DNA of 38,938 nucleotides from a virus (lineage: Duplodnaviria; Caudoviricetes), in IMG/VR virus record IMGVR_UViG_3300033076_001279, positions 1 to 38,938 of that record; one strand, 5' to 3'. Below are positions 1 through 23,220 of the stretch, piece by piece (the stretch's first letter is position 1; every line of letters starts with the position of its first letter). The notes under the pieces are model-generated. The model did not search any database, had not been told where the DNA came from, and was given only the letters and a program-made list of their open reading frames with translations. Position numbers and translations under genes: made by a program.

Positions 1-69
1 GATGGCTACGAAAGGGCTTAGATTATTTGAAAGAATAGTTTAAGCCTTTTCTTTTTAATAGCGTTGGAA
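1..69. repeat. attC-like site 1 (partial, right part only)
   Basis: GATGGCTACG...AGCCTTTTCTTTTTAA-TAGC-GTTGGAA; closely resembles site 2. Confidence 0.8.
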
Positions 70-186
70 CTCAAAGATATTTTTTTACCCACGCTAATAT
101 GATGTCCGCAAGCCAAAAAAGTTGATTATTTACTTTCGGTTTTGATTGCTTTTGATTATATTGTATCATAATCAAATGAGTTTAAA

Positions 187-873
187 ATGCCAATAAGTAA
201 AGTAGAAAATATTGATTGCATCGAGGGAATGAAGCAATTTCCTGATAAATTTTTTGATTTGGCTATTTGCGACCCACCTTATGGAAACGAATCTTCCTAT
301 AACAATAGAAGGAAGTTAAAACCATATGAAAATATTGAGCCTTTACCAGAATATTACTATGAATTATTTAGGATTTCAAAACATCAAATTATTTGGGGTG
401 CAAATTATCTAAGAAATTATGATTTAAAAGGAGGCGGTATTGTTTGGAATAAATTAGGGACTTATACAGAACATAGAAAGCAAGCTCCTACTATTGGGGA
501 CTGTGAATATGCTTTTACCTCTAAAACAAATAATATAAAAATGTTTTCTTATGCTTGGATGGGAAATGTTTTAGGGAATAATTATACAATAAATCCACCT
601 GAATCAAAAGAAAAATTTCATCCAAGTCAAAAACCTATTGCATTATATATTTGGCTACTCGAAAACTACGCAAAGCAAGGCGATAAAATACTTGACACAC
701 ATTTAGGCAGTCAATCGAGCCGAATAGCAGCATACAAGAAAGGCTTTGATTTTTGGGGCTTTGAAATCGACAAAGATTATTTCGAGGAAGGGAACGAAAG
801 GTTTGAAAAATCAATAGCGATGCCTTTGTTTGATAGTATCCGTCCGCAAATGCAGCAACTATCCCTTGTATAA
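187..873 (+). CDS. N6-adenine/N4-cytosine DNA methyltransferase (beta class)
   Basis: DPPY catalytic motif N-terminal, HPSQKP, LDTHLGSQSS SAM-binding motif C-terminal. Confidence 0.92.
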   Translation: MPISKVENIDCIEGMKQFPDKFFDLAICDPPYGNESSYNNRRKLKPYENIEPLPEYYYELFRISKHQIIWGANYLRNYDLKGGGIVWNKLGTYTEHRKQAPTIGDCEYAFTSKTNNIKMFSYAWMGNVLGNNYTINPPESKEKFHPSQKPIALYIWLLENYAKQGDKILDTHLGSQSSRIAAYKKGFDFWGFEIDKDYFEEGNERFEKSIAMPLFDSIRPQMQQLSLV

Positions 874-875
874 AC

Positions 876-963
876 TTCCAACTTTCAGCAAAATGATGGC
901 TACGGAATAAGGCTAAAACTTTGAAATATAGGTTTTAGCCTTTTCTTTTTGCGAACGTTGGAT
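876..963. repeat. attC-like site 2
   Basis: TTCCAAC-TTTCA-GCAAAATG...CTTTTTGC-GAAC-GTTGGAT. Confidence 0.85.
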
Positions 964-1074
964 GTTAAAGGTGCTTGCATTTTTCGCATTAACTTTGTCG
1001 CAAAATAAGTAAGAAAACCTATGGAAATGTCAGAAAAATTTACTATTTTGTAGTATAAATCAAACACTACAAAA

Positions 1075-1914
1075 ATGGTAATTTTAGATTTATTTAGTGG
1101 TATTGGTGGATTTTCAAAAGGGTTAATTGATGCAGGATTTCAATTTGAAACACATTATTTTTCTGAAATTGATAAACACGCAATAGCTAATTATTCTTAC
1201 AATTTTAAAAATTCACATTATGTCGGTTCAGTTACAAATGTTCGAGGAACAGAACTCAAAAGACCAAATATTATCACTTTCGGAAGCCCTTGCCAAGACT
1301 TCTCAATGGCTGGAAAACGATTGGGGATGGAAGGAGAAAGAAGTAGCCTTATCCTTGAAGCAATTAGACTTATATCCGAGTGCAGACCTGACGTATTTAT
1401 CTGGGAAAATGTTAAAGGAACATTCTCCTCAAATGATGGTGCAGACTTTATCGCAATACTCCAAGCCTTTGCCAACATTGGGGGTTATAGAATTGAATGG
1501 CAATTGCTTAATACAGCATGGGTTTTACCCCAAAATAGAGAGCGATTGTACCTTGTTGGACATCTTGCAGGAAGAAGTAAGCTCGGAGTATTTCCTATCG
1601 GAACAGAAAATAGAAAATATCAAGAATTGGAAATCGAGAGAAAACCCACTTTCTCATGTCTTACACGTAGGGGAGCAGGAGAATACCATTCAGGTATGCA
1701 ACTTATTAGAATAAAGAACAAATTAAGAGTTCCAACTGAAATTGAATGTGAAAAAGCACAAGGATTTCCAGAGAATTGGACTAAATATGGCATTAATAGT
1801 GCAGGTATTTATGAAATACCAAGAGTAGAAAGATATAAAATGTTAGGAAATTCAGTAACTACCAAAATAGTAGAATTAGTTGGAAACGGAATTAGAAATT
1901 GCCTTGAAACCTAA
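1075..1914 (+). CDS. C5-cytosine DNA methyltransferase (large/alpha polypeptide)
   Basis: DLFSGIGG (motif I), GSPCQDFS (IV), WENVKG (VI), PQNRERLY (VIII), LGNSV (X). Confidence 0.95.
   Translation: MVILDLFSGIGGFSKGLIDAGFQFETHYFSEIDKHAIANYSYNFKNSHYVGSVTNVRGTELKRPNIITFGSPCQDFSMAGKRLGMEGERSSLILEAIRLISECRPDVFIWENVKGTFSSNDGADFIAILQAFANIGGYRIEWQLLNTAWVLPQNRERLYLVGHLAGRSKLGVFPIGTENRKYQELEIERKPTFSCLTRRGAGEYHSGMQLIRIKNKLRVPTEIECEKAQGFPENWTKYGINSAGIYEIPRVERYKMLGNSVTTKIVELVGNGIRNCLET
1220..1714 (+). CDS. Nested +1-frame ORF, probable beta polypeptide of the C5 methyltransferase
   Basis: 164 codons open in AT-rich DNA inside the MTase gene; CTLLDILQEEVSSEYFLS resembles the motif of M.EcoHK31I-type alternative-frame subunits. 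Confidence 0.65.
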   Translation: MSVQLQMFEEQNSKDQILSLSEALAKTSQWLENDWGWKEKEVALSLKQLDLYPSADLTYLSGKMLKEHSPQMMVQTLSQYSKPLPTLGVIELNGNCLIQHGFYPKIESDCTLLDILQEEVSSEYFLSEQKIENIKNWKSRENPLSHVLHVGEQENTIQVCNLLE

Positions 1915-1915
1915 C

Positions 1916-2002
1916 TTCCAACTTATAGCAAAAAGATGGCTTATACCATATTTCCGAAATCAGGAAAATGGTTTTAGCCTTTACTTTTTGCGTGCGTTGG
2001 AC
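1916..2002. repeat. attC-like site 3
   Basis: TTCCAAC-TTATA-GCAAAAAG...CTTTTTGC-GTGC-GTTGGAC. Confidence 0.85.
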
Positions 2003-2090
2003 GACAAATTAACTAAAAATACCTCGCTAATTTCTTGTCCAAGTGATGCAAATTGACTAAATTATGGCATAATCAAACAATAAAAATAAA

Positions 2091-2276
2091 ATGACTGGAA
2101 AAGAAATGATAAAAATAATTCAAGATAATGGTCTTGAAGACTTTAAAATAAAAATCAATAAACTTGTTTCAAGAGATGGGAATTGGAGCTTTAATTTAGA
2201 GTCTTATTTTTTAGACTCAATGGTTGATATAGGGCATTCTGATAGAACGGTAACTTTTGATTTAATTGACGATTAA
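2091..2276 (+). CDS. Hypothetical cassette protein
   Basis: ORF with A-rich leader inside cassette 3. Confidence 0.7.
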   Translation: MTGKEMIKIIQDNGLEDFKIKINKLVSRDGNWSFNLESYFLDSMVDIGHSDRTVTFDLIDD

Positions 2277-2277
2277 T

Positions 2278-2454
2278 ATGGAAAACAGAAAATTTACAGA
2301 AGAAGACTTTCACGCTGTTGGATGGCATTTTGAAGCGTATTTTATAGAAGTTCTCAATAAAGAATATGATTTAGAAGACGCAATAAACGATTTACGTGGG
2401 CTTATTGGCTCAAAGTATGATTCAAGGGTAATTCAAGAATCATCGAATAAGTAA
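2278..2454 (+). CDS. Hypothetical cassette protein (start probably ATG 2278)
   Basis: Starts 1 nt after the previous stop; its own stop abuts site 4. Confidence 0.7.
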   Translation: MENRKFTEEDFHAVGWHFEAYFIEVLNKEYDLEDAINDLRGLIGSKYDSRVIQESSNK

Positions 2455-2455
2455 C

Positions 2456-2542
2456 TTCCAACTTTTAGTAAAAAGATGCTTGGTTTTAAAGTATCTTTTT
2501 GCTAAATTAGGTATTAACATTTACTTTTTACGAGCGTTGGAA
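2456..2542. repeat. attC-like site 4
   Basis: TTCCAAC-TTTTA-GTAAAAAG...CTTTTTAC-GAGC-GTTGGAA. Confidence 0.85.
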
Positions 2543-2600
2543 TCAAAGCACTTTGAAGTATCAAAGTGAGTTGATGTCCGCAAACCAATAAAATAAAAAT

Positions 2601-2927
2601 ATGCTAATTAAAGAAGCTACTTACGAAAATGTAATGGTTGAAACAAGAAAAAGAGTTTCAGATGATGTTTTTGGCTGTGATTGTTGTGAAAAAGAAATAA
2701 AAGAGTATCCAAACGAAAACAGTAGATTAGAGCTTACTGTTTTTAAAGGCAATTCTGATGATGCTGAACACTTGCACTTTTGCTCGTGGGAGTGTGTTTT
2801 GAAACAACTTCCTAAAATAAAAACTGATTATTTTATAAGTTTACCCTTTGTTTATTTTGATGAAAAATGTGAAGATAAACGTTCAGGAAATGAATTAATA
2901 TCTTTGCTGAAAAGATTGAAGATATAG
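2601..2927 (+). CDS. Hypothetical cassette protein, possible Zn-binding (CDCC...FCSWEC)
   Basis: Paired Cys motifs reminiscent of TRASH/treble-clef fingers; fills cassette 4. Confidence 0.7.
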   Translation: MLIKEATYENVMVETRKRVSDDVFGCDCCEKEIKEYPNENSRLELTVFKGNSDDAEHLHFCSWECVLKQLPKIKTDYFISLPFVYFDEKCEDKRSGNELISLLKRLKI

Positions 2928-2930
2928 CAC

Positions 2931-3009
2931 TTCCAACGCCTTGATGGGCGATGGAATAGTGATTTTTGACAAAAAATAGGCTTTCATTTACGCCTATCTA
3001 ATGTTGGAA
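2931..3009. repeat. attC-like site 5
   Basis: TTCCAAC-GCCTT-GATGGGCG...CGCCTATC-TAAT-GTTGGAA. Confidence 0.85.
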
Positions 3010-3057
3010 CTCAAACAAATTTTAAATTACAAAAGCGACTGAAAGTCGCACGACATT

Positions 3058-3300
3058 ATGAAAGAACAAGTTTTTTTTTGTGCCGCACATGGAAAAAATG
3101 TTGGCGAAAGAGTAACAATAACAGGCTCATCAGTTAATCAAGTAAAGGGTAAGCTACGAAAAAGTTTTATAGAAGGAATTATCATTGGCGGTGGCACAAT
3201 TTGGGAAAAACACGAGAAGGGTCTTGGATGGCATAAAAGCGTTGCAAGTTGGAGTCCACGCACAAAAACAACTCTGAAAGCTAAGCATATTTTAGAGTAG
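3058..3300 (+). CDS. Hypothetical basic cassette protein
   Basis: ORF fills cassette 5. Confidence 0.7.
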   Translation: MKEQVFFCAAHGKNVGERVTITGSSVNQVKGKLRKSFIEGIIIGGGTIWEKHEKGLGWHKSVASWSPRTKTTLKAKHILE

Positions 3301-3305
3301 AAAAT

Positions 3306-3392
3306 TTCCAACCAAAAGCATTATGAAGATTGGAAAATAATGCTTATATTAGATAAGAAATAACAAACTTTTACTTAATGCGAGCGTTGGAA
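3306..3392. repeat. attC-like site 6
   Basis: TTCCAAC-CAAAA-GCATTATG...CTTAATGC-GAGC-GTTGGAA. Confidence 0.85.
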
Positions 3393-3451
3393 TCAAAGCA
3401 CTTTGAAGTATCAGAGTGAGTTGATGTCCGCAAACCAAAACAAATAAAACT

Positions 3452-3811
3452 ATGAGAATAGAATTAGAGAAAATACCTGTAAAAAATGAGGGAGGAACAA
3501 ACAATATAACTTGTAATTTGATTGAATTAGGGTTAGAAAGTTTAAACCCATATTTTCATGTTACAATCATTTTAAATAACGAATTATATCAAACAATTAG
3601 AAAAGTGTATCCGCCAGATGATTATATAATTGGAGCAAATGAAGTTGATTTCTTTGTTAATAATGATATTCTAAATAACTGTTTAGTTGTAATTCAAAAT
3701 TTGAACTTACCACACAAAATTGAAAATTTTGTTACAACTTATAAAATATTTGAGTTTGGAGATATTACGGAGTTTATTAAAACAATAGGGGTAAAAGCAA
3801 CAAAAATATAA
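3452..3811 (+). CDS. Hypothetical cassette protein
   Basis: ORF fills cassette 6. Confidence 0.75.
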   Translation: MRIELEKIPVKNEGGTNNITCNLIELGLESLNPYFHVTIILNNELYQTIRKVYPPDDYIIGANEVDFFVNNDILNNCLVVIQNLNLPHKIENFVTTYKIFEFGDITEFIKTIGVKATKI

Positions 3812-3834
3812 TAAATGTTTAGCGAATAAGCAAC

Positions 3835-3920
3835 TTCCAACTAAAAGCATTGAGAAGTTTTGAAATAAAATATCTTTTTGCTATATTGTTTAATACATTT
3901 TCTTAATGCGAGCGTTGGAA
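3835..3920. repeat. attC-like site 7
   Basis: TTCCAAC-TAAAA-GCATTGAG...CTTAATGC-GAGC-GTTGGAA. Confidence 0.85.
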
Positions 3921-3962
3921 TACAAATATTTTTAAATTATTTTTCTAATATGATGTCGCAAA

Positions 3963-4394
3963 ATGAATATACTTAACAGATTACCTAAATGGCAAATTGA
4001 AAAGGTGCTTAATCAGCCAAATTGTGATATAGATTTGGATTTTTTAGGATTTTTAGATATTTATGAAACGCTATCAAAAATAATTCCTAAATATTTCACA
4101 GTTGTTGATTTAGGGTGTGCATACAATCCGCAGTGTTTCTTTTTTGAAGAACATAAATCATATTTGGCTGTTGATATATCTGATTGCGTGAAATTTCAAG
4201 CAAAAAATTGTGAAATTTTTCAAAAAAGCATAAGTGAATTTATTAATGAAAATTTAAGTAATTTGAATTTAGAAGAAACATTTGCTATATGCAGTTATGT
4301 GCCATCTTGGGGTGGAGATAATGGAAAAATAGCAAGAGATACATTTAAAAATGTTTTTGTATATTATCCATCATCAACTCGTGAAATATCGTAG
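3963..4394 (+). CDS. Small SAM-dependent methyltransferase-fold protein
   Basis: VVDLGCAY (motif I-like) followed by YLAVDIS (motif II-like). Confidence 0.6.
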   Translation: MNILNRLPKWQIEKVLNQPNCDIDLDFLGFLDIYETLSKIIPKYFTVVDLGCAYNPQCFFFEEHKSYLAVDISDCVKFQAKNCEIFQKSISEFINENLSNLNLEETFAICSYVPSWGGDNGKIARDTFKNVFVYYPSSTREIS

Positions 4395-4403
4395 AATAAG
4401 CAC

Positions 4404-4489
4404 TTCCAACCAAATTGATTCTGATGGCTTGGTAGTGATTTATGATTTGAAAAAAAAGTTTTAGCCTTTTCAGAATCATGACGTTGGAA
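4404..4489. repeat. attC-like site 8
   Basis: TTCCAAC-CAAAT-TGATTCTG...CAGAATCA-TGAC-GTTGGAA. Confidence 0.85.
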
Positions 4490-4605
4490 GGCAAGGGAAT
4501 TTCTTTACTCCAACGCTGTATAAATGTCGCCAAATAAATTTATGTAAATGCTTGACTATTAGGTGATTAATTAGTATTTTTAGGTATTACTAAATTTAAT
4601 TTTAA

Positions 4606-5298
4606 ATGATAAAATCTAATAATCTACTGCATGGAGATTGCTTTTTAGCAATAAAAGAAATAGAAGACAATAGTGTTGATTTAATTGTTACTGACCCCCC
4701 ATACGGAATAAACTTTACCAAAGGTTATAAAAGTGGCTCAACAGAATTAGTTCATGGTGATGATGGGTTTTCGGTAATGGTTTTTGTTGATGAGTTGATG
4801 AAAGAGTTTAAAAGGGTTTTAAGACCTGATAGTGCAATTTATATTTTTACACGTTTTGACGTAATGCCGTATTGGTGGTTAAAAATAAAGAATTATTTTG
4901 ACACAAAAAATCAAATAGTATGGTTTAAAGGCGGCGGTGGAATGGGAGATTTGACTGGAAATTTTTCTTTTAATTATGAAAGTATAATGTTTGCTACAAA
5001 TGGAAAACATAAAATAAGAGGGAAAAGAGATGGTTCAGTTTGGCAAATTGGCAAATGCAAGCAAGAATACCATGAAACACAAAAACCCGTTGAATTAATT
5101 GAAAAAATCATAAAACATAGCACAGACGAAGGAATGACAGTCTTTGACCCCTTTATGGGAAGCGGCACAACTGGGGTAGCTTGCAAAAATTTGAATAGGA
5201 ATTTTATTGGAATTGAAATGATAGAATCTAATTTTAATATTGCAAAAAAAAGAATAGAATCTCATTGTCCGCAAGTAAATTTATTGTCCCTTGTGTAA
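4606..5298 (+). CDS. N6-adenine/N4-cytosine DNA methyltransferase (beta class)
   Basis: VTDPPY, HETQKP, FDPFMGSGTTG. Confidence 0.95.
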   Translation: MIKSNNLLHGDCFLAIKEIEDNSVDLIVTDPPYGINFTKGYKSGSTELVHGDDGFSVMVFVDELMKEFKRVLRPDSAIYIFTRFDVMPYWWLKIKNYFDTKNQIVWFKGGGGMGDLTGNFSFNYESIMFATNGKHKIRGKRDGSVWQIGKCKQEYHETQKPVELIEKIIKHSTDEGMTVFDPFMGSGTTGVACKNLNRNFIGIEMIESNFNIAKKRIESHCPQVNLLSLV

Positions 5299-5300
5299 AC

Positions 5301-5388
5301 TTCCAACTAAAAGCATTGAGATGGTTGGGTTTTAGAGTTAATTTATTGATTTACAATTACTTACCTTTTCTTAATGCGGATGTTGGAA
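5301..5388. repeat. attC-like site 9
   Basis: TTCCAAC-TAAAA-GCATTGAG...CTTAATGC-GGAT-GTTGGAA. Confidence 0.85.
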
Positions 5389-5476
5389 CGCTAAGGAGTT
5401 AGAAAAAACCTCGCTAATTTCTTGTCCAAGTGATAAAAATTGACTAAATTATTAGCATAATTCAAACACAAAAACT

Positions 5477-5779
5477 ATGGAAATCAATCATGCCCCTCAA
5501 ATTGTTTCATTTGCTCATATTGACCCTAATACAAAAGATTTATATACTTATTACTTCCAAATAACCAAAGGGAAAATATGGCTTCATTCTATTGATAAAT
5601 GGGAGAAAAATGGAAGGACTGGAAATGGTTACAAACATGAAGAAGTTTTTCATTTTGAATATAAAAATACAATTACAAATTATGAAACAGGGGAATTTGA
5701 ACAGCCCAAAGTTCCTGAATATTTAATGAATAATGCAAAACTATTTTTTATTGGTTACGTGGCAAATAATTGTATATAA
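5477..5779 (+). CDS. Hypothetical cassette protein
   Basis: ORF with AAAACTATG start context in cassette 9. Confidence 0.75.
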   Translation: MEINHAPQIVSFAHIDPNTKDLYTYYFQITKGKIWLHSIDKWEKNGRTGNGYKHEEVFHFEYKNTITNYETGEFEQPKVPEYLMNNAKLFFIGYVANNCI

Positions 5780-5787
5780 ATAAACCT

Positions 5788-6006
5788 ATGAGTAAAATGA
5801 AAAAAGTAATTTGCTATATATTTGGGCATAAAGAAGAAGATTTTACAGATTCTGGCTATATGATTTGTAAAAGATGTAAATGTCACGAATATTATGACGG
5901 TTGGGGAATTGGTATTTTTGCATCTATTTGGCAAAGAATAAAACGAAAAATTGGAAGGATAAAAGATGAAATTTACTATCAAATTTTTAATGAATTGCCG
6001 TTTTAA
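5788..6006 (+). CDS. Small hypothetical protein with C..GH...CxRC motif (DUF1660-like); start uncertain
   Basis: ICYIFGHK...ICKRC pattern typical of small phage Zn-binding proteins; stop just before site 10. Confidence 0.65.
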   Translation: MSKMKKVICYIFGHKEEDFTDSGYMICKRCKCHEYYDGWGIGIFASIWQRIKRKIGRIKDEIYYQIFNELPF

Positions 6007-6010
6007 GCAC

Positions 6011-6089
6011 TTCCAACTTTGGCATTTGAGATGCCGAAGTATTTTAAAACTTAAAATTGCGTAGCGTTTGCTTAAATGCTATGTTGGAA
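6011..6089. repeat. attC-like site 10
   Basis: TTCCAAC-TTTGG-CATTTGAG...CTTAAATG-CTAT-GTTGGAA. Confidence 0.85.
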
Positions 6090-6148
6090 GATGCGGAACT
6101 TTCAAATCCGCTCTAATCAAATGTCTCTGAGAACCAAAAAACAAGAAT

Positions 6149-6373
6149 ATGATTTTATTGCAATTTGATAGAATGAAAGAATTTGTTGAAACAATGCAGC
6201 CTTTCATTGAAAAATATAGAAGCGAATATCATAAAAACGTATTTGAAATTGATAGCACTGTTTGCTACGATGAATATGAATTGTACGAATATTTACATAA
6301 TAATGGAGAAATTACAGAAAAATTTGAATTTGCTTTACATTTTTCTGAATTTGGGCATATAATCAAACATTAG
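6149..6373 (+). CDS. Hypothetical cassette protein
   Basis: ORF fills cassette 10. Confidence 0.7.
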   Translation: MILLQFDRMKEFVETMQPFIEKYRSEYHKNVFEIDSTVCYDEYELYEYLHNNGEITEKFEFALHFSEFGHIIKH

Positions 6374-6385
6374 CGTAGAACAATT

Positions 6386-6473
6386 TTCCAACTCATAGTA
6401 ATGAGATGGCTTTGGTTAAAAGTTGAATTAAATGGTTGTGGTTTCGAGCCTTTTCTTATTACGGATGTTGGAA
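6386..6473. repeat. attC-like site 11
   Basis: TTCCAAC-TCATA-GTAATGAG...CTTATTAC-GGAT-GTTGGAA. Confidence 0.85.
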
Positions 6474-6664
6474 CACAAGTTTAGATTGCAAACTCGCTGA
6501 ACAAACGTCCAAGTGATGAATGAGTCACAAACCAAACAAACTGCCGAGTAGTAAAATTATTGAAATGTTGGTCGCATTCTTTGTAACTACTCGCCAATTT
6601 GCTGTCGGTTTGATGCTTGCACCCTTTGAATAAGTCCAAAGGGAGTGCTTGTCGAAATGATTTG
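6474..6664. ncRNA. ORF-less structured cassette, candidate ncRNA
   Basis: No + strand ORF; nested stems CAAACC/GGTTTG and CGAGTAGT/ACTACTCG, then hairpin GCACCCTTTG/CAAAGGGAGTGC. Confidence 0.45.
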
Positions 6665-6715
6665 TCCAACTACATAAACGACAATCTAAATTAGTTAAAA
6701 CTTTTTAAATTGTCA
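6665..6715 (-). other. Candidate attI-like primary recombination site
   Basis: Array ends with a lone TCCAAC core lacking a GTTGGA partner, followed by TACATAAAC and the inverted repeat GACAATCTAAA...TTTAAATTGTC. Confidence 0.5.
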
Positions 6716-6718
6716 AGT

Positions 6719-7234
6719 TTATGTTTTCTTTTTTTTCAGACTCGAATAGGGTTGATTTACTTTTAGATTCATTAGAGAATCTTGTAAAAATTGCACTTTA
6801 CATTTTAGCTTTTGCTGCTCTACTTTCAGTTTCTGTATTTCTTCTGAGTTTTGCTTGGTGGATAATACATTTTGTAAAAACGTGTATATAGCAATAAATG
6901 AACCTATGAGTATTGTAATATTTTTAACCCAAAACTCAAAGGTTATTTTAAATTTTTCCCATCCTTCTTTTAAATATTTTTCCGACTTATATGAGTTTAC
7001 CCCTTCTTCTAAAAGTCCAATTGTATCTGGATTGTTGTTTCTTTTATATAAGACTTCGCTTGAAGATTCTAATTCATAAACAGTTTTTTTTATTAAAGGT
7101 ACTTCATAAGACAAGATATTTGATAGCTCTTTCAATGAATATAAATCATGGCTATTAAATCGCTCTTTTGGCATTTTCCAAAGAGCTTCTAATATTTTGT
7201 GTTTAATTCTATATTTTTGAGGTATTATTTTCAT
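6719..7234 (-). CDS. Hypothetical protein: wHTH-like N-terminus, one TM segment, coiled coil (start probably ATG 7234)
   Basis: Hydrophobic ITILIGSFIAIYTFL followed by a heptad-rich tail. Confidence 0.65.
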   Translation of the reverse strand: MKIIPQKYRIKHKILEALWKMPKERFNSHDLYSLKELSNILSYEVPLIKKTVYELESSSEVLYKRNNNPDTIGLLEEGVNSYKSEKYLKEGWEKFKITFEFWVKNITILIGSFIAIYTFLQNVLSTKQNSEEIQKLKVEQQKLKCKVQFLQDSLMNLKVNQPYSSLKKKKT

Positions 7235-7256
7235 TTTTCCAACGTACAAAAACACT

Positions 7257-7289
7257 ACTTCGGTTAAATGTATTAACCGAAGTTTTTTT
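7257..7289. terminator. Intrinsic terminator, probably bidirectional
   Basis: ACTTCGGTTAA-ATGTA-TTAACCGAAGT with T-rich tails on both strands. Confidence 0.75.
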
Positions 7290-7666
7290 TATAGCTGACT
7301 TTCAAAATAAAATACTCCATTGAACGGCTTATCAACTGTTATATCAAATAGTTGAGAAATTTTTTTCATGTATTCAATGCGTTTCAATGCTTTATTAGAT
7401 TTGGTTGTTTTGGGCAATTTAGCCAGCCGAATGTGAAAAGTTTTCATATATTCTCGAAACTGTTCTAAATCTTTTCCTCGTTTGTAATGATTGATAATTG
7501 AAATACATGGGATAAGATTATAAAACTCATCAGCATTGCCTTCTACATATTTTTGCTTAAATCTATATTGTGGCATGACGTGGTCTATTTGCCAATCATT
7601 GCCTAAAATTTGCCCTGTGTAAGCACAACGACCGCCAAATCTTGTTTGTACTTGTTCTCTTTTCAT
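7289..7666 (-). CDS. HNH endonuclease-family protein
   Basis: GRCAYTG...WQIDHVMP...NLIPC...INHYK. Confidence 0.85.
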   Translation of the reverse strand: MKREQVQTRFGGRCAYTGQILGNDWQIDHVMPQYRFKQKYVEGNADEFYNLIPCISIINHYKRGKDLEQFREYMKTFHIRLAKLPKTTKSNKALKRIEYMKKISQLFDITVDKPFNGVFYFESQL

Positions 7667-7702: not shown

Positions 7703-7915
7703 TTAATCGCATAATTCAAGTTCACTCGCTTTAAATTCATTACATACGCCATCTTTTATTTTTAAACCCCATTGAAACTCTCCATCTTCAATGTCTTTTA
7801 TACTTTTTGCCCTCCATAATTCACATGGCTGTTTAAATATATGACTACAATTCACAGAATCTTTTGCTTTAATTTTTGTGCCAATTGGCAATTTTAATAA
7901 ATCAGTAGGTTTCAT
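7703..7915 (-). CDS. Hypothetical protein
   Basis: ORF in operon context. Confidence 0.65.
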   Translation of the reverse strand: MKPTDLLKLPIGTKIKAKDSVNCSHIFKQPCELWRAKSIKDIEDGEFQWGLKIKDGVCNEFKASELELCD

Positions 7916-7936: not shown

Positions 7937-8842
7937 TTAAAAATCTTTCAATAAATCAATATTAACGTTTCTTTTTGCACACTTGGTATAAAGCATGGTA
8001 GTTGATAAGTCAGCGTGTCCGAGAAGTTCGCTAATCTTATCAATTGATGTATCATTGTTAAGTAAATGAGTAGCAAATGAATGTCGAAGCGTGTGGATAC
8101 ACCCTTTTGATTTTATCCCAGCCTTTTCTTTTGCTTTGTGAAATTCTGTTTCGGCTGTTCTTCCTGATAATTGCTTACCTTGCTTGTTTTGAAAAATAAA
8201 CTCATTTGATTCAACTTCTATTCCTTCAAAATACTTTCTATAATAATCAGTAAGTGTTGAGAGAACTAATTTCGGAAGCATTACATAACGCTGTTTACAG
8301 CCTTTGCCTTTCTGAACAAACAACTTCATATCGTGTCGGTTAATATCGCAAAATCTTAAATTACATATTTCGTTTAATCTTAAACCGCAACCGTAGGCAA
8401 ACATAAAGAATAGCATATATTTTAGGCTCTCTGTTGTGTTCAAAATATTTTTCACATCATCTACACTAAAAATCTTTGGTAATGGCTTAGAACGTATAAA
8501 ATTAAGTCTTTTCAAGAACTCATTATTTTCTCCGATAAAATCAAGATACTTAATTAATGCTGCTCTGATTTGAAATTTACGTGCCGAGCCTAAATCTTTT
8601 TTTAGCCAATAATATGCGTTTACAGACGTTGAATTTATTTGAGCGTTGTGTTTATCGTTTACAAATAGATAAACGTTTTTGATGTCAGAAATATATGTTG
8701 TAATAGTTTTCTGTGAATGATTGCAAATGACTAAACGCTTTTCAAACTGTTCAATATTGTGTTTTTGTTCATCAGTCAAATTTTTTAGTTTTTTAACTGG
8801 GCTTTTTTTGTACGATGGTATGATGGCTGTGTATGTGTACAT
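7937..8842 (-). CDS. Tyrosine recombinase, IntI/XerD-like; candidate cassette integrase
   Basis: LPKIFS, YGCGLRLNE (R), GKGCKQR (K), HTLRHSFATHLL (HxxR), LLGH, TTMLY (Y); short SAM-like N-terminus; no IntI-specific insertion. Confidence 0.92.
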   Translation of the reverse strand: MYTYTAIIPSYKKSPVKKLKNLTDEQKHNIEQFEKRLVICNHSQKTITTYISDIKNVYLFVNDKHNAQINSTSVNAYYWLKKDLGSARKFQIRAALIKYLDFIGENNEFLKRLNFIRSKPLPKIFSVDDVKNILNTTESLKYMLFFMFAYGCGLRLNEICNLRFCDINRHDMKLFVQKGKGCKQRYVMLPKLVLSTLTDYYRKYFEGIEVESNEFIFQNKQGKQLSGRTAETEFHKAKEKAGIKSKGCIHTLRHSFATHLLNNDTSIDKISELLGHADLSTTMLYTKCAKRNVNIDLLKDF

Positions 8843-8862: not shown

Positions 8863-8893
8863 AAAAAAAGAGGGCAACAAAATTGCTACCCTC
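8863..8893 (-). terminator. Intrinsic terminator just upstream of the recombinase gene
   Basis: Minus strand GAGGGTAGC-AATTTT-GTTGCCCTC-TTTTTTT. Confidence 0.75.
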
Positions 8894-8920
8894 CTACTCA
8901 CTTGTTTTGGGTGTACGAGT

Positions 8921-13413: not shown

Positions 13414-13475
13414 CAAAGTTATACAATAAATTGTAATTTACAAAATATTGTAATTAAAATTTACAAAAAATTGTG
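13414..13475 (-). promoter_or_regulatory. Early promoter overlapped by three operators
   Basis: Minus strand TTTG(13444-13441)-N19-TAACTTTG(13421-13414); TACAAnnnnTTGTA at 13422, 13439 and 13462 (last one degenerate). Confidence 0.8.
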
Positions 13476-16291: not shown

Positions 16292-16406
16292 TACAAGTAT
16301 TTGTATTTTACAAAAAATAGTATTTAATTTGTTCCGTTATGTTGTAATACTCAACAAACTAACAATGCAAACATATACAATAAATTGTAAATTACAAAAT
16401 ATTGTA
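16292..16406. promoter_or_regulatory. Lysis/lysogeny switch region with four operators and a leftward promoter
   Basis: TACAAnnnnTTGTA-like sites at 16292, 16309, 16376, 16393; minus strand TTTG(16398-16395)-N19-TATGTTTG(16375-16368). Confidence 0.8.
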
Positions 16407-16422
16407 ACTAAATAATTATTAT

Positions 16423-17288: not shown

Positions 17289-18632
17289 ATGAAAACACTT
17301 GCAATCATTCGAAAAATGACAGCTATCTCTGTAACCTATCGTTTCCGCCGCTCTCGTGGCAAAAATGAAAATCAAGGGCATATTCAAGTTTGCATCAAAA
17401 TTAAAGACTTTGATTATTCCCCCCTTACTTACAAACACAATGTAGAAAAATCGGTATGGGATGCAATTAATGAACCTAAAAAAGCAAAATCGAAAGAAAT
17501 TCAATTCAAAAGTATTGAGCTAAAAAAGGAGCTTGACGAATTTGTAAATACCATTCGTGCGACTTATGTTTTACTTTCTAATCAGGAACAAGAAATAATA
17601 ACAGCACATGACCTTGTTTATTATAACACAAAAACATCCGAAATTCAAAAGAAAAAAATTGAAGTTAGTAATTTATCATCTTTGATTGATGATTTTATTG
17701 AAAAAAATAAAGAAAAAGTTTTAGATAAAATTGTTCCTTTTAAGATTAAAAATAAGATTACAAAAGGAACATTCAGAAACTACAAAAAATACCAGCAAAA
17801 AATAAATGATTATCTATCTTATTCAAAACAAAAATATGTTTCAATACATAATGTAGATTTATTATTTATTGAAGGATTAGAAAAGTATTTAGACGCTAAA
17901 TATAGCACTTCATACACTGCAAAAATTATAAAATTTGTAATACAAATAATGGATTATGCAGTTAATTGTCGATATGTAAAAGTTAATTACTTGAACAATT
18001 ATAAAACTTTTTCAGGCATTCCAAGTGAGCCTTTTAATATTCCAGAAGAGGATATTAATAAGATAGAATTTTATCAATTTTATGATTCAGTAGAAAGGAG
18101 GTACGTTAATGCTTGGTTATTAGCTCGTGAACTTGCTTTACACTTTATTGATTATGCAGATTTGAAAAATGAAAACATTAATTTGAAAGATTTTTATGAA
18201 ATTGAAAATATGCAAAAAGTTTTTCATTTCGACCAAATACCAATCAAGAAAAAACAAAAAGTTTATGCTTTTCAAAAGGTTAGAGTAAAATCAAAAATAT
18301 TTCAAAACTCAATATTTACACCTCGTGCCGTAAGAATGTTTGAATATTTTGATAAAAATGTATTAATGATGCCTTTGAATGGCAAATATTCATCAATAAC
18401 CTCATTTTCTAAAATATTACGCCCAGCATTGCAAAAGGCACTTAATAGTGATGTTAATTATGTATTTTCTCATGCAAGGGATTCGATGATTTATCATCTT
18501 CTTCGTATGAAATCGCACGACCGTTTTATCATGGCAATAGCAGGGTGGCGTTCACTCGATGAATTACACAGATACGCTCGTGTTGATAATCAAATTCTTT
18601 TTGATTCAAAATATTACTCAAAAAGTGCTTGA
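17289..18632 (+). CDS. int: Phage integrase (Bacteroidota arm-binding + SAM-like + catalytic domains), divergent active site
   Basis: N-terminal beta-rich arm-binding-like region, ITKGTFRNY, C-terminal SHARDS..AGW..RY. Confidence 0.8.
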   Translation: MKTLAIIRKMTAISVTYRFRRSRGKNENQGHIQVCIKIKDFDYSPLTYKHNVEKSVWDAINEPKKAKSKEIQFKSIELKKELDEFVNTIRATYVLLSNQEQEIITAHDLVYYNTKTSEIQKKKIEVSNLSSLIDDFIEKNKEKVLDKIVPFKIKNKITKGTFRNYKKYQQKINDYLSYSKQKYVSIHNVDLLFIEGLEKYLDAKYSTSYTAKIIKFVIQIMDYAVNCRYVKVNYLNNYKTFSGIPSEPFNIPEEDINKIEFYQFYDSVERRYVNAWLLARELALHFIDYADLKNENINLKDFYEIENMQKVFHFDQIPIKKKQKVYAFQKVRVKSKIFQNSIFTPRAVRMFEYFDKNVLMMPLNGKYSSITSFSKILRPALQKALNSDVNYVFSHARDSMIYHLLRMKSHDRFIMAIAGWRSLDELHRYARVDNQILFDSKYYSKSA

Positions 18633-21822: not shown

Positions 21823-23220
21823 ATGAAAATAATTGATATTACAAAAACTGATAATATTGATGAATCAATTAAGATTCTAATTAAAAATAAAGCTGATAAT
21901 CAAATTGAAAAATTGAAAAAACAATTTGATGTCTATGGGCATGATGTTTTTGATAAATCGAAGCGTAAAGACAAAGAAATAAAAGACGATAAAGGAGTAG
22001 TTGAACGTCAAGAAAGCGTTAATAGAATTGGTCTTTCTATTCAAAAGCGTATTGTAAATTCTGCCGTAAATTTTACTTTTGGGAAACCAGTCCAATATAC
22101 TTGTAATTCTACTGATACATCAGAAATTGAATTACTTTCTTCTTTTAAGAATGTTTTGAAAGACAATAAAATAGAAACTTTTGACCGTGAAATTGCAAAG
22201 GCTCTATTTAAGAGTACAGAAGTTGCTGAAATATGGTATTTAGTGCCATTAGATGAAGCAAATGAAAAATATGGTTTTAACAGTAAGTTTAGAATAAAAG
22301 TTGTAAAAGTTTGTGAATGGGATGGTGATTTGTTGTTTCCTATTTTTGACACAACAGGCAATTTAATTTGTTTTTCAAGAAAGTATGTTATAAAAAATGA
22401 AGAAGGTAAAAGTATTGAGTTTTTAGATGTATTTACTGATGAAGAAATAGTTAATTATCAAAAGTCTGATAATGGATGGATAGAACTTACAAGAGTTGAA
22501 AATTTAATAAAAAAAATACCAGTCATTTATGCAAAACAAGAAAATTCCGAATGGCACGATGTGCAAAGTGCAATAGATAGATTAGAAATTTTATTGTCAA
22601 ATTTTGCTGATACAGACGATTATCATGCAGCACCTAAAATTTTTGTTCAAGGTGGATTAAGTGGGTTTTCTCAAAAAGGTGAATCAGGTGCTATTTTAAT
22701 TGGGGAAAATGGAGCAACTGCCGAATATTTATCTTGGAATCATGCTACCGATGCTGTAAAACTTGAAATTGAAACTTTATTTAAAATTATTTACTCACAA
22801 ACACAAACACCTGATATTTCTTTTGATAATCTTAAAGACTTAAATCAAATTAGTGGTGTAGCTTTGAAGATGTTATTTATGGATGCTCATTTGAAAGTAA
22901 TGGATAAAAAGACAATATTTGATAGTTATATTCAACGTAGAATTAATGTAGTTTTGGCGTTTTTAGCACAAATCAATACTAAACTTGCAAAAACTATTCA
23001 AAAAATAGACATCAAACATGAAATAATTCCTTACATGATTGAAGACCAAAAAGCAAATATTGATTTATTAATTAGTGCAAATAATGGTAAACCACTTGTT
23101 TCTCAAAAAACATCAATTTCTTTAGCTGGATTAGTTAATGATGTTGATACAGAATGGGAACAGATTCAAAAAGAAGAAACACAAGCAAATCAAGAAGCAA
23201 TTGGAAGTACAGTAATTTGA
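21823..23220 (+). CDS. Portal protein (SPP1 gp6-like)
   Basis: Position after terL; KIPVIY, SQTQTPDISF, SGVALK motifs. Confidence 0.92.
   Translation: MKIIDITKTDNIDESIKILIKNKADNQIEKLKKQFDVYGHDVFDKSKRKDKEIKDDKGVVERQESVNRIGLSIQKRIVNSAVNFTFGKPVQYTCNSTDTSEIELLSSFKNVLKDNKIETFDREIAKALFKSTEVAEIWYLVPLDEANEKYGFNSKFRIKVVKVCEWDGDLLFPIFDTTGNLICFSRKYVIKNEEGKSIEFLDVFTDEEIVNYQKSDNGWIELTRVENLIKKIPVIYAKQENSEWHDVQSAIDRLEILLSNFADTDDYHAAPKIFVQGGLSGFSQKGESGAILIGENGATAEYLSWNHATDAVKLEIETLFKIIYSQTQTPDISFDNLKDLNQISGVALKMLFMDAHLKVMDKKTIFDSYIQRRINVVLAFLAQINTKLAKTIQKIDIKHEIIPYMIEDQKANIDLLISANNGKPLVSQKTSISLAGLVNDVDTEWEQIQKEETQANQEAIGSTVI

Follow-up and report, generated by a model that had tools for sequence, protein, structure and literature searches.

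At the head of a phage-borne array of hairpin-bounded cassettes lies a gene for a tyrosine recombinase that lacks the insertion found in integron integrases (IntI). We lean toward the reading that this gene encodes the array's own recombinase, which, by analogy to integrons, would excise and insert cassettes at G|TT using folded single-strand sites. That some insert-less enzyme, from the phage or from its bacterial hosts, runs this family of hairpin sites appears very probable. The array system is a variation on the integron design with scant coverage in the literature searched, and the phage gene is probably its phage-borne enzyme. The stretch of DNA analyzed here (the window, 38,938 nucleotides) comprises an entire 38.9-kb phage contig, on which RecT, terminase, portal, capsid and tape-measure genes are found.

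The phage recombinase and the IntI insertion

The recombinase is encoded at 7937-8842 on the minus strand as a 301-amino acid protein with core-binding and catalytic domains, and all protein motifs quoted in the original prediction are present in this ORF. The catalytic domain scores 134 bits with PF00589 (cut-off 27.1), and the R-K-H-R-H-Y set is complete (R155, K180, H250, R253, H276, Y285). We compared the protein to VchIntIA (2a3v), to which it aligns in two pieces (query 42-196 with chain 18-176, and query 234-292 with chain 251-309). Between the two pieces lie 37 query residues versus 74 in VchIntIA, and about 37 IntI residues are thus missing. The spacing from GKG to HxLRH is 71 in the phage protein versus 107 in IntI1 and 108 in a Vibrio IntI; it is 66 in four host array-head enzymes described below and 72-76 in XerC/D-like proteins. 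An AlphaFold model (mean pLDDT 91) contains no helix at residues 205-227. With the IntI model TIGR02249 the protein reaches 138.7 bits, under the cut-off of 265, two IntI controls scoring 483 and 494. These findings together bear out the predictions that the insertion is absent, that IntI-specific profiles would miss the enzyme and that it does not score as a canonical IntI. The latter identity is ruled out by the TIGR02249 cut-off and the alignment. XerC/XerD identity is likewise ruled out by alignment and by scores under both cut-offs (149.8 of 335 for TIGR02224, 142.7 of 330 for TIGR02225). The best NCBIfam model, NF040815, gives 167 bits, under its cut-off of 220. Two structures come out level as the best matches of the AlphaFold model, archaeal XerA with Z 22.8 and rmsd 14.3, and VchIntIA with Z 22.5 and rmsd 3.3 over 272 aligned residues.

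The extra sequence of IntI forms two pieces in the alignment, an I2-type segment with a 'KYP..W' motif before EFIF and a beta-4,5 extension that ends in RRHH at FQNKQ/GKQ. Helix I2 had been predicted to be lost at the EFIFQNKQ/GKQLSGRT junction. There is a gap at this junction, but it is that of the beta-4,5 hairpin, and the I2-type segment maps upstream of EFIF. In VchIntIA, the I2-type and beta-4,5 parts hold the extrahelical G and T, according to passages of one structural account (PMC3053210). Mapping these parts by motif, we infer that both are missing from the phage enzyme.

A missing insertion is by itself ordinary, as it is the normal state of tyrosine recombinases. The loci of 18 other insert-less homologues carry zero or one site each, as counted with a detector that sees only YAAC..GTTR sites with unbulged arms, such that other site types could escape, and with some of these loci lying at contig ends; two adjoin IS91 transposases. 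The missing insertion is thus not diagnostic. The phage gene is intact, and a close relative at 92% identity retains every catalytic residue. Among the 23 best-supported variants listed for the gene in run X1, 15 fall at third codon positions, with 11 codons silent, 9 changed and none of them catalytic. This conservation, with mostly third-position differences among those shown, argues for an enzyme that serves the array.

Hairpin sites and the head of the array

The array presupposed by the original prediction is indeed present. Ten full hairpin sites lie on the plus strand (876-963, 1916-2002, 2456-2542, 2931-3009, 3306-3392, 3835-3920, 4404-4489, 5301-5388, 6011-6089 and 6386-6473), and an eleventh (1-69, plus strand) is truncated by the contig end, beyond which the array continues. 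Together they occupy positions 1-6478 and delimit at least 11 cassettes. On the plus strand a site reads TTCCAAC, 4-5 nt, an 8-bp arm, an asymmetric T-rich loop, a variable stem, the second arm, 3-4 nt and GTTGGA; on the recombinase strand, TCCAAC is followed by 3-4 nt, the first 8-bp arm, the asymmetric loop, the variable stem, the second arm, 4-5 nt and GTTGGAA. The array thus has the cassette-array feature of integrons, being hairpin-bounded with an AAC/GTT box. A generic site detector reports 9 sites in the window versus none in each of 50 block-shuffles. In an alignment not fitted to structure, 97.5% of 160 arm cells are paired, versus 36-47% in slid controls; these pairing figures come from a separate alignment, a wider pair table with about 12 of 83 sites out of register having been set aside. 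Double changes occur at seven of the eight arm pairs. The extrahelical G and T of canonical attC sites are absent, the 8-bp arm being unbulged in 97.5% of cells, in agreement with the different bulge that had been predicted. One arm position is a G-T pair on the plus strand in four of the ten sites and pairs on that strand only. The folding energy is equal for both strands (-9.7 versus -9.7) and favors neither.

It seems improbable that the enzyme works on the array by ordinary duplex recombination, using TTCCAAC/GTTGGAA cores or extruded cruciforms, in which case no new single-strand reading would be needed. Such an activity would suit a protein with neither helix I2 nor the beta-4,5 extension, a fold tied between XerA and VchIntIA and sites whose folding energy has no strand bias, and IntI itself has been proposed to derive from a duplex-acting ancestor (PMC7790495). 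However, the arm sequence varies while pairing is kept, which points to selection for structure rather than for a duplex binding sequence, and the G-T arm position in four of ten sites pairs on the plus strand only. The cores are also separated by about 70 bp, more than a simple duplex core of the Cre or Xer kind would span.

The first cassette (6386-7243, minus strand) is of the host type described below, with an ORF in recombinase sense (7234-6719), a spacer of about 250 bp and the hairpin at 6386-6473. Over 339 bp, spacer and hairpin share 92.9% identity with a Spirosomataceae chromosome, in which they are joined to a different ORF. A second lone GTTGGAC (6665-6671, minus strand) is located inside the spacer. 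The cassette is headed by a GTTGGAA half-site without hairpin (7237-7243, minus strand), a putative attI-like insertion point (G|TT) located 693 bp from the recombinase stop codon. Directly before the array head, a consensus scan places a terminator-like hairpin that scores on both strands (7257-7283). Between it and the recombinase lie two minus-strand ORFs, an HNH-family ORF (7289-7666) that is 61% identical over 80 amino acids to a cassette-borne ORF of phage G004, and a 70-amino acid ORF of no known family (7703-7915). The HNH gene is fixed between recombinase and head site in the window, and is cassette-borne and inverted in G004 (21979-22290). Another terminator-like hairpin, from the consensus scan only, lies just 5' of the recombinase start (8868-8895, minus strand). 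The head half-site is unlike host head sites upstream of GTTGGAA and comes after a terminator, as a secondary target might; this and the two ORFs between gene and head weaken the case for the phage gene as the array's recombinase.

The ORFs of the ten other cassettes are inverted and lie on the plus strand (187-6373). Three encode DNA methyltransferases (187-873, 1075-1914 and 4606-5298), and the remaining inverted-cassette ORFs have no match among the Pfam and PHROG families scanned. Hairpin arm and spacer are common (89-94%) to cassettes with unrelated ORFs in two instances (2516-2599 and 3366-3449; 2016-2065 and 5403-5452). A TGTC-type motif recurs about 40 bp past most sites.

In a few cases, cassettes were found as mobile units with limits at G|TT, resolved to within GTTGGAA. 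Two host loci have in common a block of 98.6% identity that ends at GTTGGAA, and immediately ahead of the upstream GTTGGAA their sequences diverge. In run X1, a contig of 1517 nt carries positions 3835-4402, one site-to-site unit, at its 461-1027 only, between different flanks. One X2 contig (depth about 2.5) corresponds exactly to 7164-7243 and then runs into arm-like sequence, and the head cassette thus seems to occur elsewhere behind a full site. The covarying sites, the cassette limits inside GTTGGAA and the head cassette resembling a bacterial chromosome all support the reading that the phage gene serves its array. The recombinase, the HNH gene and the terminator/head site are all covered by X1 contigs, one of which runs straight from the recombinase stop into the HNH start and skips the 70-amino acid ORF; none of the contigs of relatives bridges recombinase to head site. 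A hole in X1 cover over the first-cassette ORF was given no weight, and most other contig joints were left out, as what lies between is not known and they may be repeat matches. X3 contigs with site-like pieces and other flanks suggest further cassettes to the left of 1-75; X3 (share 0.98) may be the sample from which the window came and is not independent.

Related arrays and the placement of the recombinase

The site pattern occurs in 27 stretches of genome_contigs, all in Emticicia, Arcicella, Spirosomataceae or Cytophagaceae records. Five such genomes contain 36, 20, 1, 68 and 6 site-model matches, and none of the five encodes an IntI above the TIGR02249 cut-off. In four of them the best homologue of the phage protein (383-390 amino acids, 33-37% identity, insert-less) heads an array of the same site family, and in another genome (L136) a fragment of this host array-head clade also has sites behind it. 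The prediction that insert-less enzymes go with hairpin sites is supported by their place at array heads in bacteria without IntI above cut-off; the part that concerns the phage enzyme's own action on its array did not gain the same support, given the 18 insert-less loci with zero or one site, five phages without a homologue and the lack of nesting with the host clade described below. The host array-head gene lies 454-463 bp from its GTTGGAA half-site, comparable to the 693 bp of the phage, on the same side and with the same polarity, and this shared layout is one basis for assigning the phage gene to its array. Host array-head enzymes carry an N-terminal extension of about 100 amino acids, which the phage enzyme lacks. 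At 157 host sites, 117 cassette genes run in recombinase sense, 5 are inverted and 35 are unscored (117 of 122 scored); at 33 phage sites, 29 are inverted, 1 is in sense and 3 are unscored (29 of 30 scored). The site type is patchy in the host family, with a model match under strict filters in 4 of the 61 genomes drawn.

Three side observations were made in host genomes. The 68 site matches of one 160-kb contig (G010:C2) are spread along it in two runs, with the recombinase behind the first, and make up a chromosomal array of very large size. In G008 (C1:2645912-2646762), a second array encloses another recombinase of the same broad group, which is broken. In two host loci an ORF of about 70 amino acids, similar to that of the window and located between gene and head site, points toward the recombinase stop (L081 7162-7377, L080 6995-7207).

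The existence of host enzymes for exactly these sites also fits a different reading, the main rival, which we regard as possible but less likely: that the array is a captured cassette cluster with no integrase of its own, on which the host array-head recombinase acts in trans. The phage gene would then encode an Xer-like resolvase or integrase, unrelated and part of the early operon, and would be adjacent only because cassettes land behind the operon terminator. Seven viral records showed the site pattern, of which five phage contigs were kept; G012 and G005, which had no model match, were dropped as chance. The recombinase homologue is absent from all five, two of them rated complete, which favors action in trans and weakens the assignment of the phage gene to the array. 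Two looser site patterns gave one locus (G012) and none. In phage G006, an unrelated 400-amino acid phage integrase sits directly at the array head (L018 11278-12480), and recombinase-array adjacency can thus be incidental. The insert-less homologue loci without an array, two of them beside IS91 transposases, point the same way. The window's second integrase-like gene, described at the end, looks degenerate, and the 301-amino acid enzyme could thus be needed for phage integration instead. Phage relatives with flanking DNA were found in viral_contigs neither by protein search nor by back-translated motif; an alignment search of the same set gave two distant loci, both without sites, and a metagenome scan gave at least three loci, one of them close but only 1282 bp long. 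L098 (53% identity), the only close relative with flanking DNA, has no site in the 537 bp behind its stop, which further weakens the link between phage gene and array. Against a captured cluster stand the side, polarity and distance of the phage gene, which fit the host layout, and the contigs of the relative, among which recombinase, HNH gene and head site are all represented but never together on a single contig.

We next consider the phylogeny, for which 88 and 45 rows were chosen from about 360 hits and six reference rows (broken, redundant or odd) were excluded. In three trees the phage protein forms a small clade with P0002, P0121, P0122 and L098 inside an insert-less sister group of IntI; it lies outside IntI, and a 100/99 branch separates it from XerC/XerD. 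The claim of a sister clade that is neither IntI nor XerC/D is thus upheld in the trees. In all three, the host array-head clade also excludes the phage protein, and in the mixture tree two starred branches come between the two, a separation that speaks for action in trans and against the phage gene as the array's recombinase. The AU test, however, rejects no union (p-AU 0.43 with the host clade, 0.15 with IntI, 0.13 with Xer). As it leaves the IntI and Xer unions unrejected as well, the deep placement of the phage protein is weak, and the predicted separation from both groups, seen in the trees, does not extend to this test. Seven rare residues are common to the phage clade and the host array-head clade (six of them in the phage protein), versus 0-3 for seven other groups. 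These residues argue for the phage gene as the array's recombinase, as does the unrejected host union, and they also speak against the reading in trans.

Comparison with integrons and a possible mechanism

The phage system resembles integrons (IntI, attI, attC; VchIntIA 2a3v, TIGR02249) in having a tyrosine recombinase at the array head, an AAC...GTT outer box, G|TT limits, a head half-site and sites in which structure is kept while sequence varies. Unlike in integrons, the enzyme has no IntI insertion, its gene points towards the array and not away from it, and 29 of 30 scorable phage ORFs are inverted. The phage sites have a 5x4 or 4x3 spacer, an unbulged 8-bp arm and a T-rich asymmetric loop, rather than a single extrahelical G and T. 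Compared with XerC/XerD, the phage protein is alike in size, two-domain build and lack of insertion, but it scores far under both cut-offs and is set apart by the 100/99 branch, although the AU test leaves the union unrejected. IS91-associated integrases and NF040815 proteins ('site-specific tyrosine recombinase/integron integrase') belong to the same broad insert-less sister group at 30-34% identity; in contrast, the phage protein is under the NF040815 cut-off, no IS91 transposase is found among the scanned ORFs of the window, and the loci of those proteins show no arrays.

The rAID-1 elements of Bacteroidales (bioRxiv 10.1101/471110) have an XerD-family recombinase 5' of consecutive small genes, between which lie repeated sequences 'reminiscent of integrons' in the passages available. 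Their definition requires at least 44% identity to BF9343_RS08045, downstream genes that are co-directional, and cargo for immunity. As judged by these passages, Emticicia arrays have the rAID-1 layout, with two or more co-directional downstream genes; the phage-borne element differs in having methyltransferases as known cargo and one cassette in sense with ten inverted, and hence no co-directional row. Neither a hairpin model nor a crossover point nor a recombination assay appears in the same passages. Phage CALINs, as presented in parts of PMC9892861, are cassette clusters in phages, including one in a Polaribacter (Bacteroidota) phage and one behind a terminator, with methyltransferase cargo. 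They are similar to our array in being a phage cassette cluster, in the terminator before it and in the cargo, whereas IntI-type models detect their sites, which are canonical attC and serve as substrates of IntI1, and those parts name no cognate non-IntI recombinase (PMC9892861). In a literature search that covered few subscription papers, we found no report of an insert-less recombinase acting on such arrays, nor of a phage-encoded one, in the passages available (including PMC9024848, PMC8138268, PMC4889954, PMC8618304 and 10.1101/2024.07.02.601686).

If the phage gene is the array's own recombinase, its mechanism may be envisaged as follows. By analogy to attC, the strand opposite to the recombinase gene would fold, and the enzyme would bind two elements that flank the 5x4 unpaired spacer, the AAC/GTT box and the 8-bp arm. 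Cleavage would occur at G|TT with exchange of one strand pair, the junction being resolved by replication as in integrons, and new cassettes would enter at 7243. Helix I2 would have nothing to hold, there being no single extrahelical G in the arm. Instead, the catalytic core may read the T-rich internal loop and the asymmetric spacer, which would supply the bend and the strand choice; I116, Y142, F146, N168, N219 and M283, shared with the host enzymes, are candidate reading residues. With most cassette genes in inverted orientation, their expression would start at the far side or within the cassette spacers rather than at a promoter inside the recombinase gene. The phage would probably gain a store of methyltransferases and further small phage genes that can be renewed. 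More broadly, and tentatively, Bacteroidota and their phages may share a second integron chemistry, in which insert-less recombinases act on folded single strands without helix I2; the phage would have its own, separately derived enzyme, take in host cassettes and make new ones from its own genes by adding a hairpin-plus-spacer module in reverse orientation.

Single-strand recombination has been tied to the gain of helix I2, in passages of PMC7790495. If the phage enzyme or its host counterparts recombine hairpins, helix I2 would be one solution among others, and integron-style gene swapping would work without a part thought essential. Integron surveys such as that of Cury et al. reportedly define the enzyme by the insertion. 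Large arrays, such as the one with 68 model matches on one 160-kb contig, would then fall outside current integron counts. Should the array instead be worked in trans, the gene would be an ordinary phage recombinase and interest would shift to the array and the host enzyme. The small enzyme with its ten natural sites makes for an easy assay. The switch in gene orientation between host and phage and the modules shared by different ORFs bear on how cassettes are made; the same module on different ORFs, together with an HNH gene that is fixed here and cassette-borne in G004, would make cassette birth directly testable.

An Rfam scan of the window gave no family at gathering score, and a promoter scan found 61 candidates versus 47.5 expected, an uninformative excess. 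The second integrase-like ORF of the window (17289-18632, plus strand; 447 amino acids) matches Phage_int_SAM_5, has no PF00589 match and shows degenerate catalytic motifs; it may be a dead integrase or a regulator. A 45-nt near-palindromic repeat (91%) at 13414-13458 and 16368-16412 flanks a divergent regulatory region and represents a possible operator.
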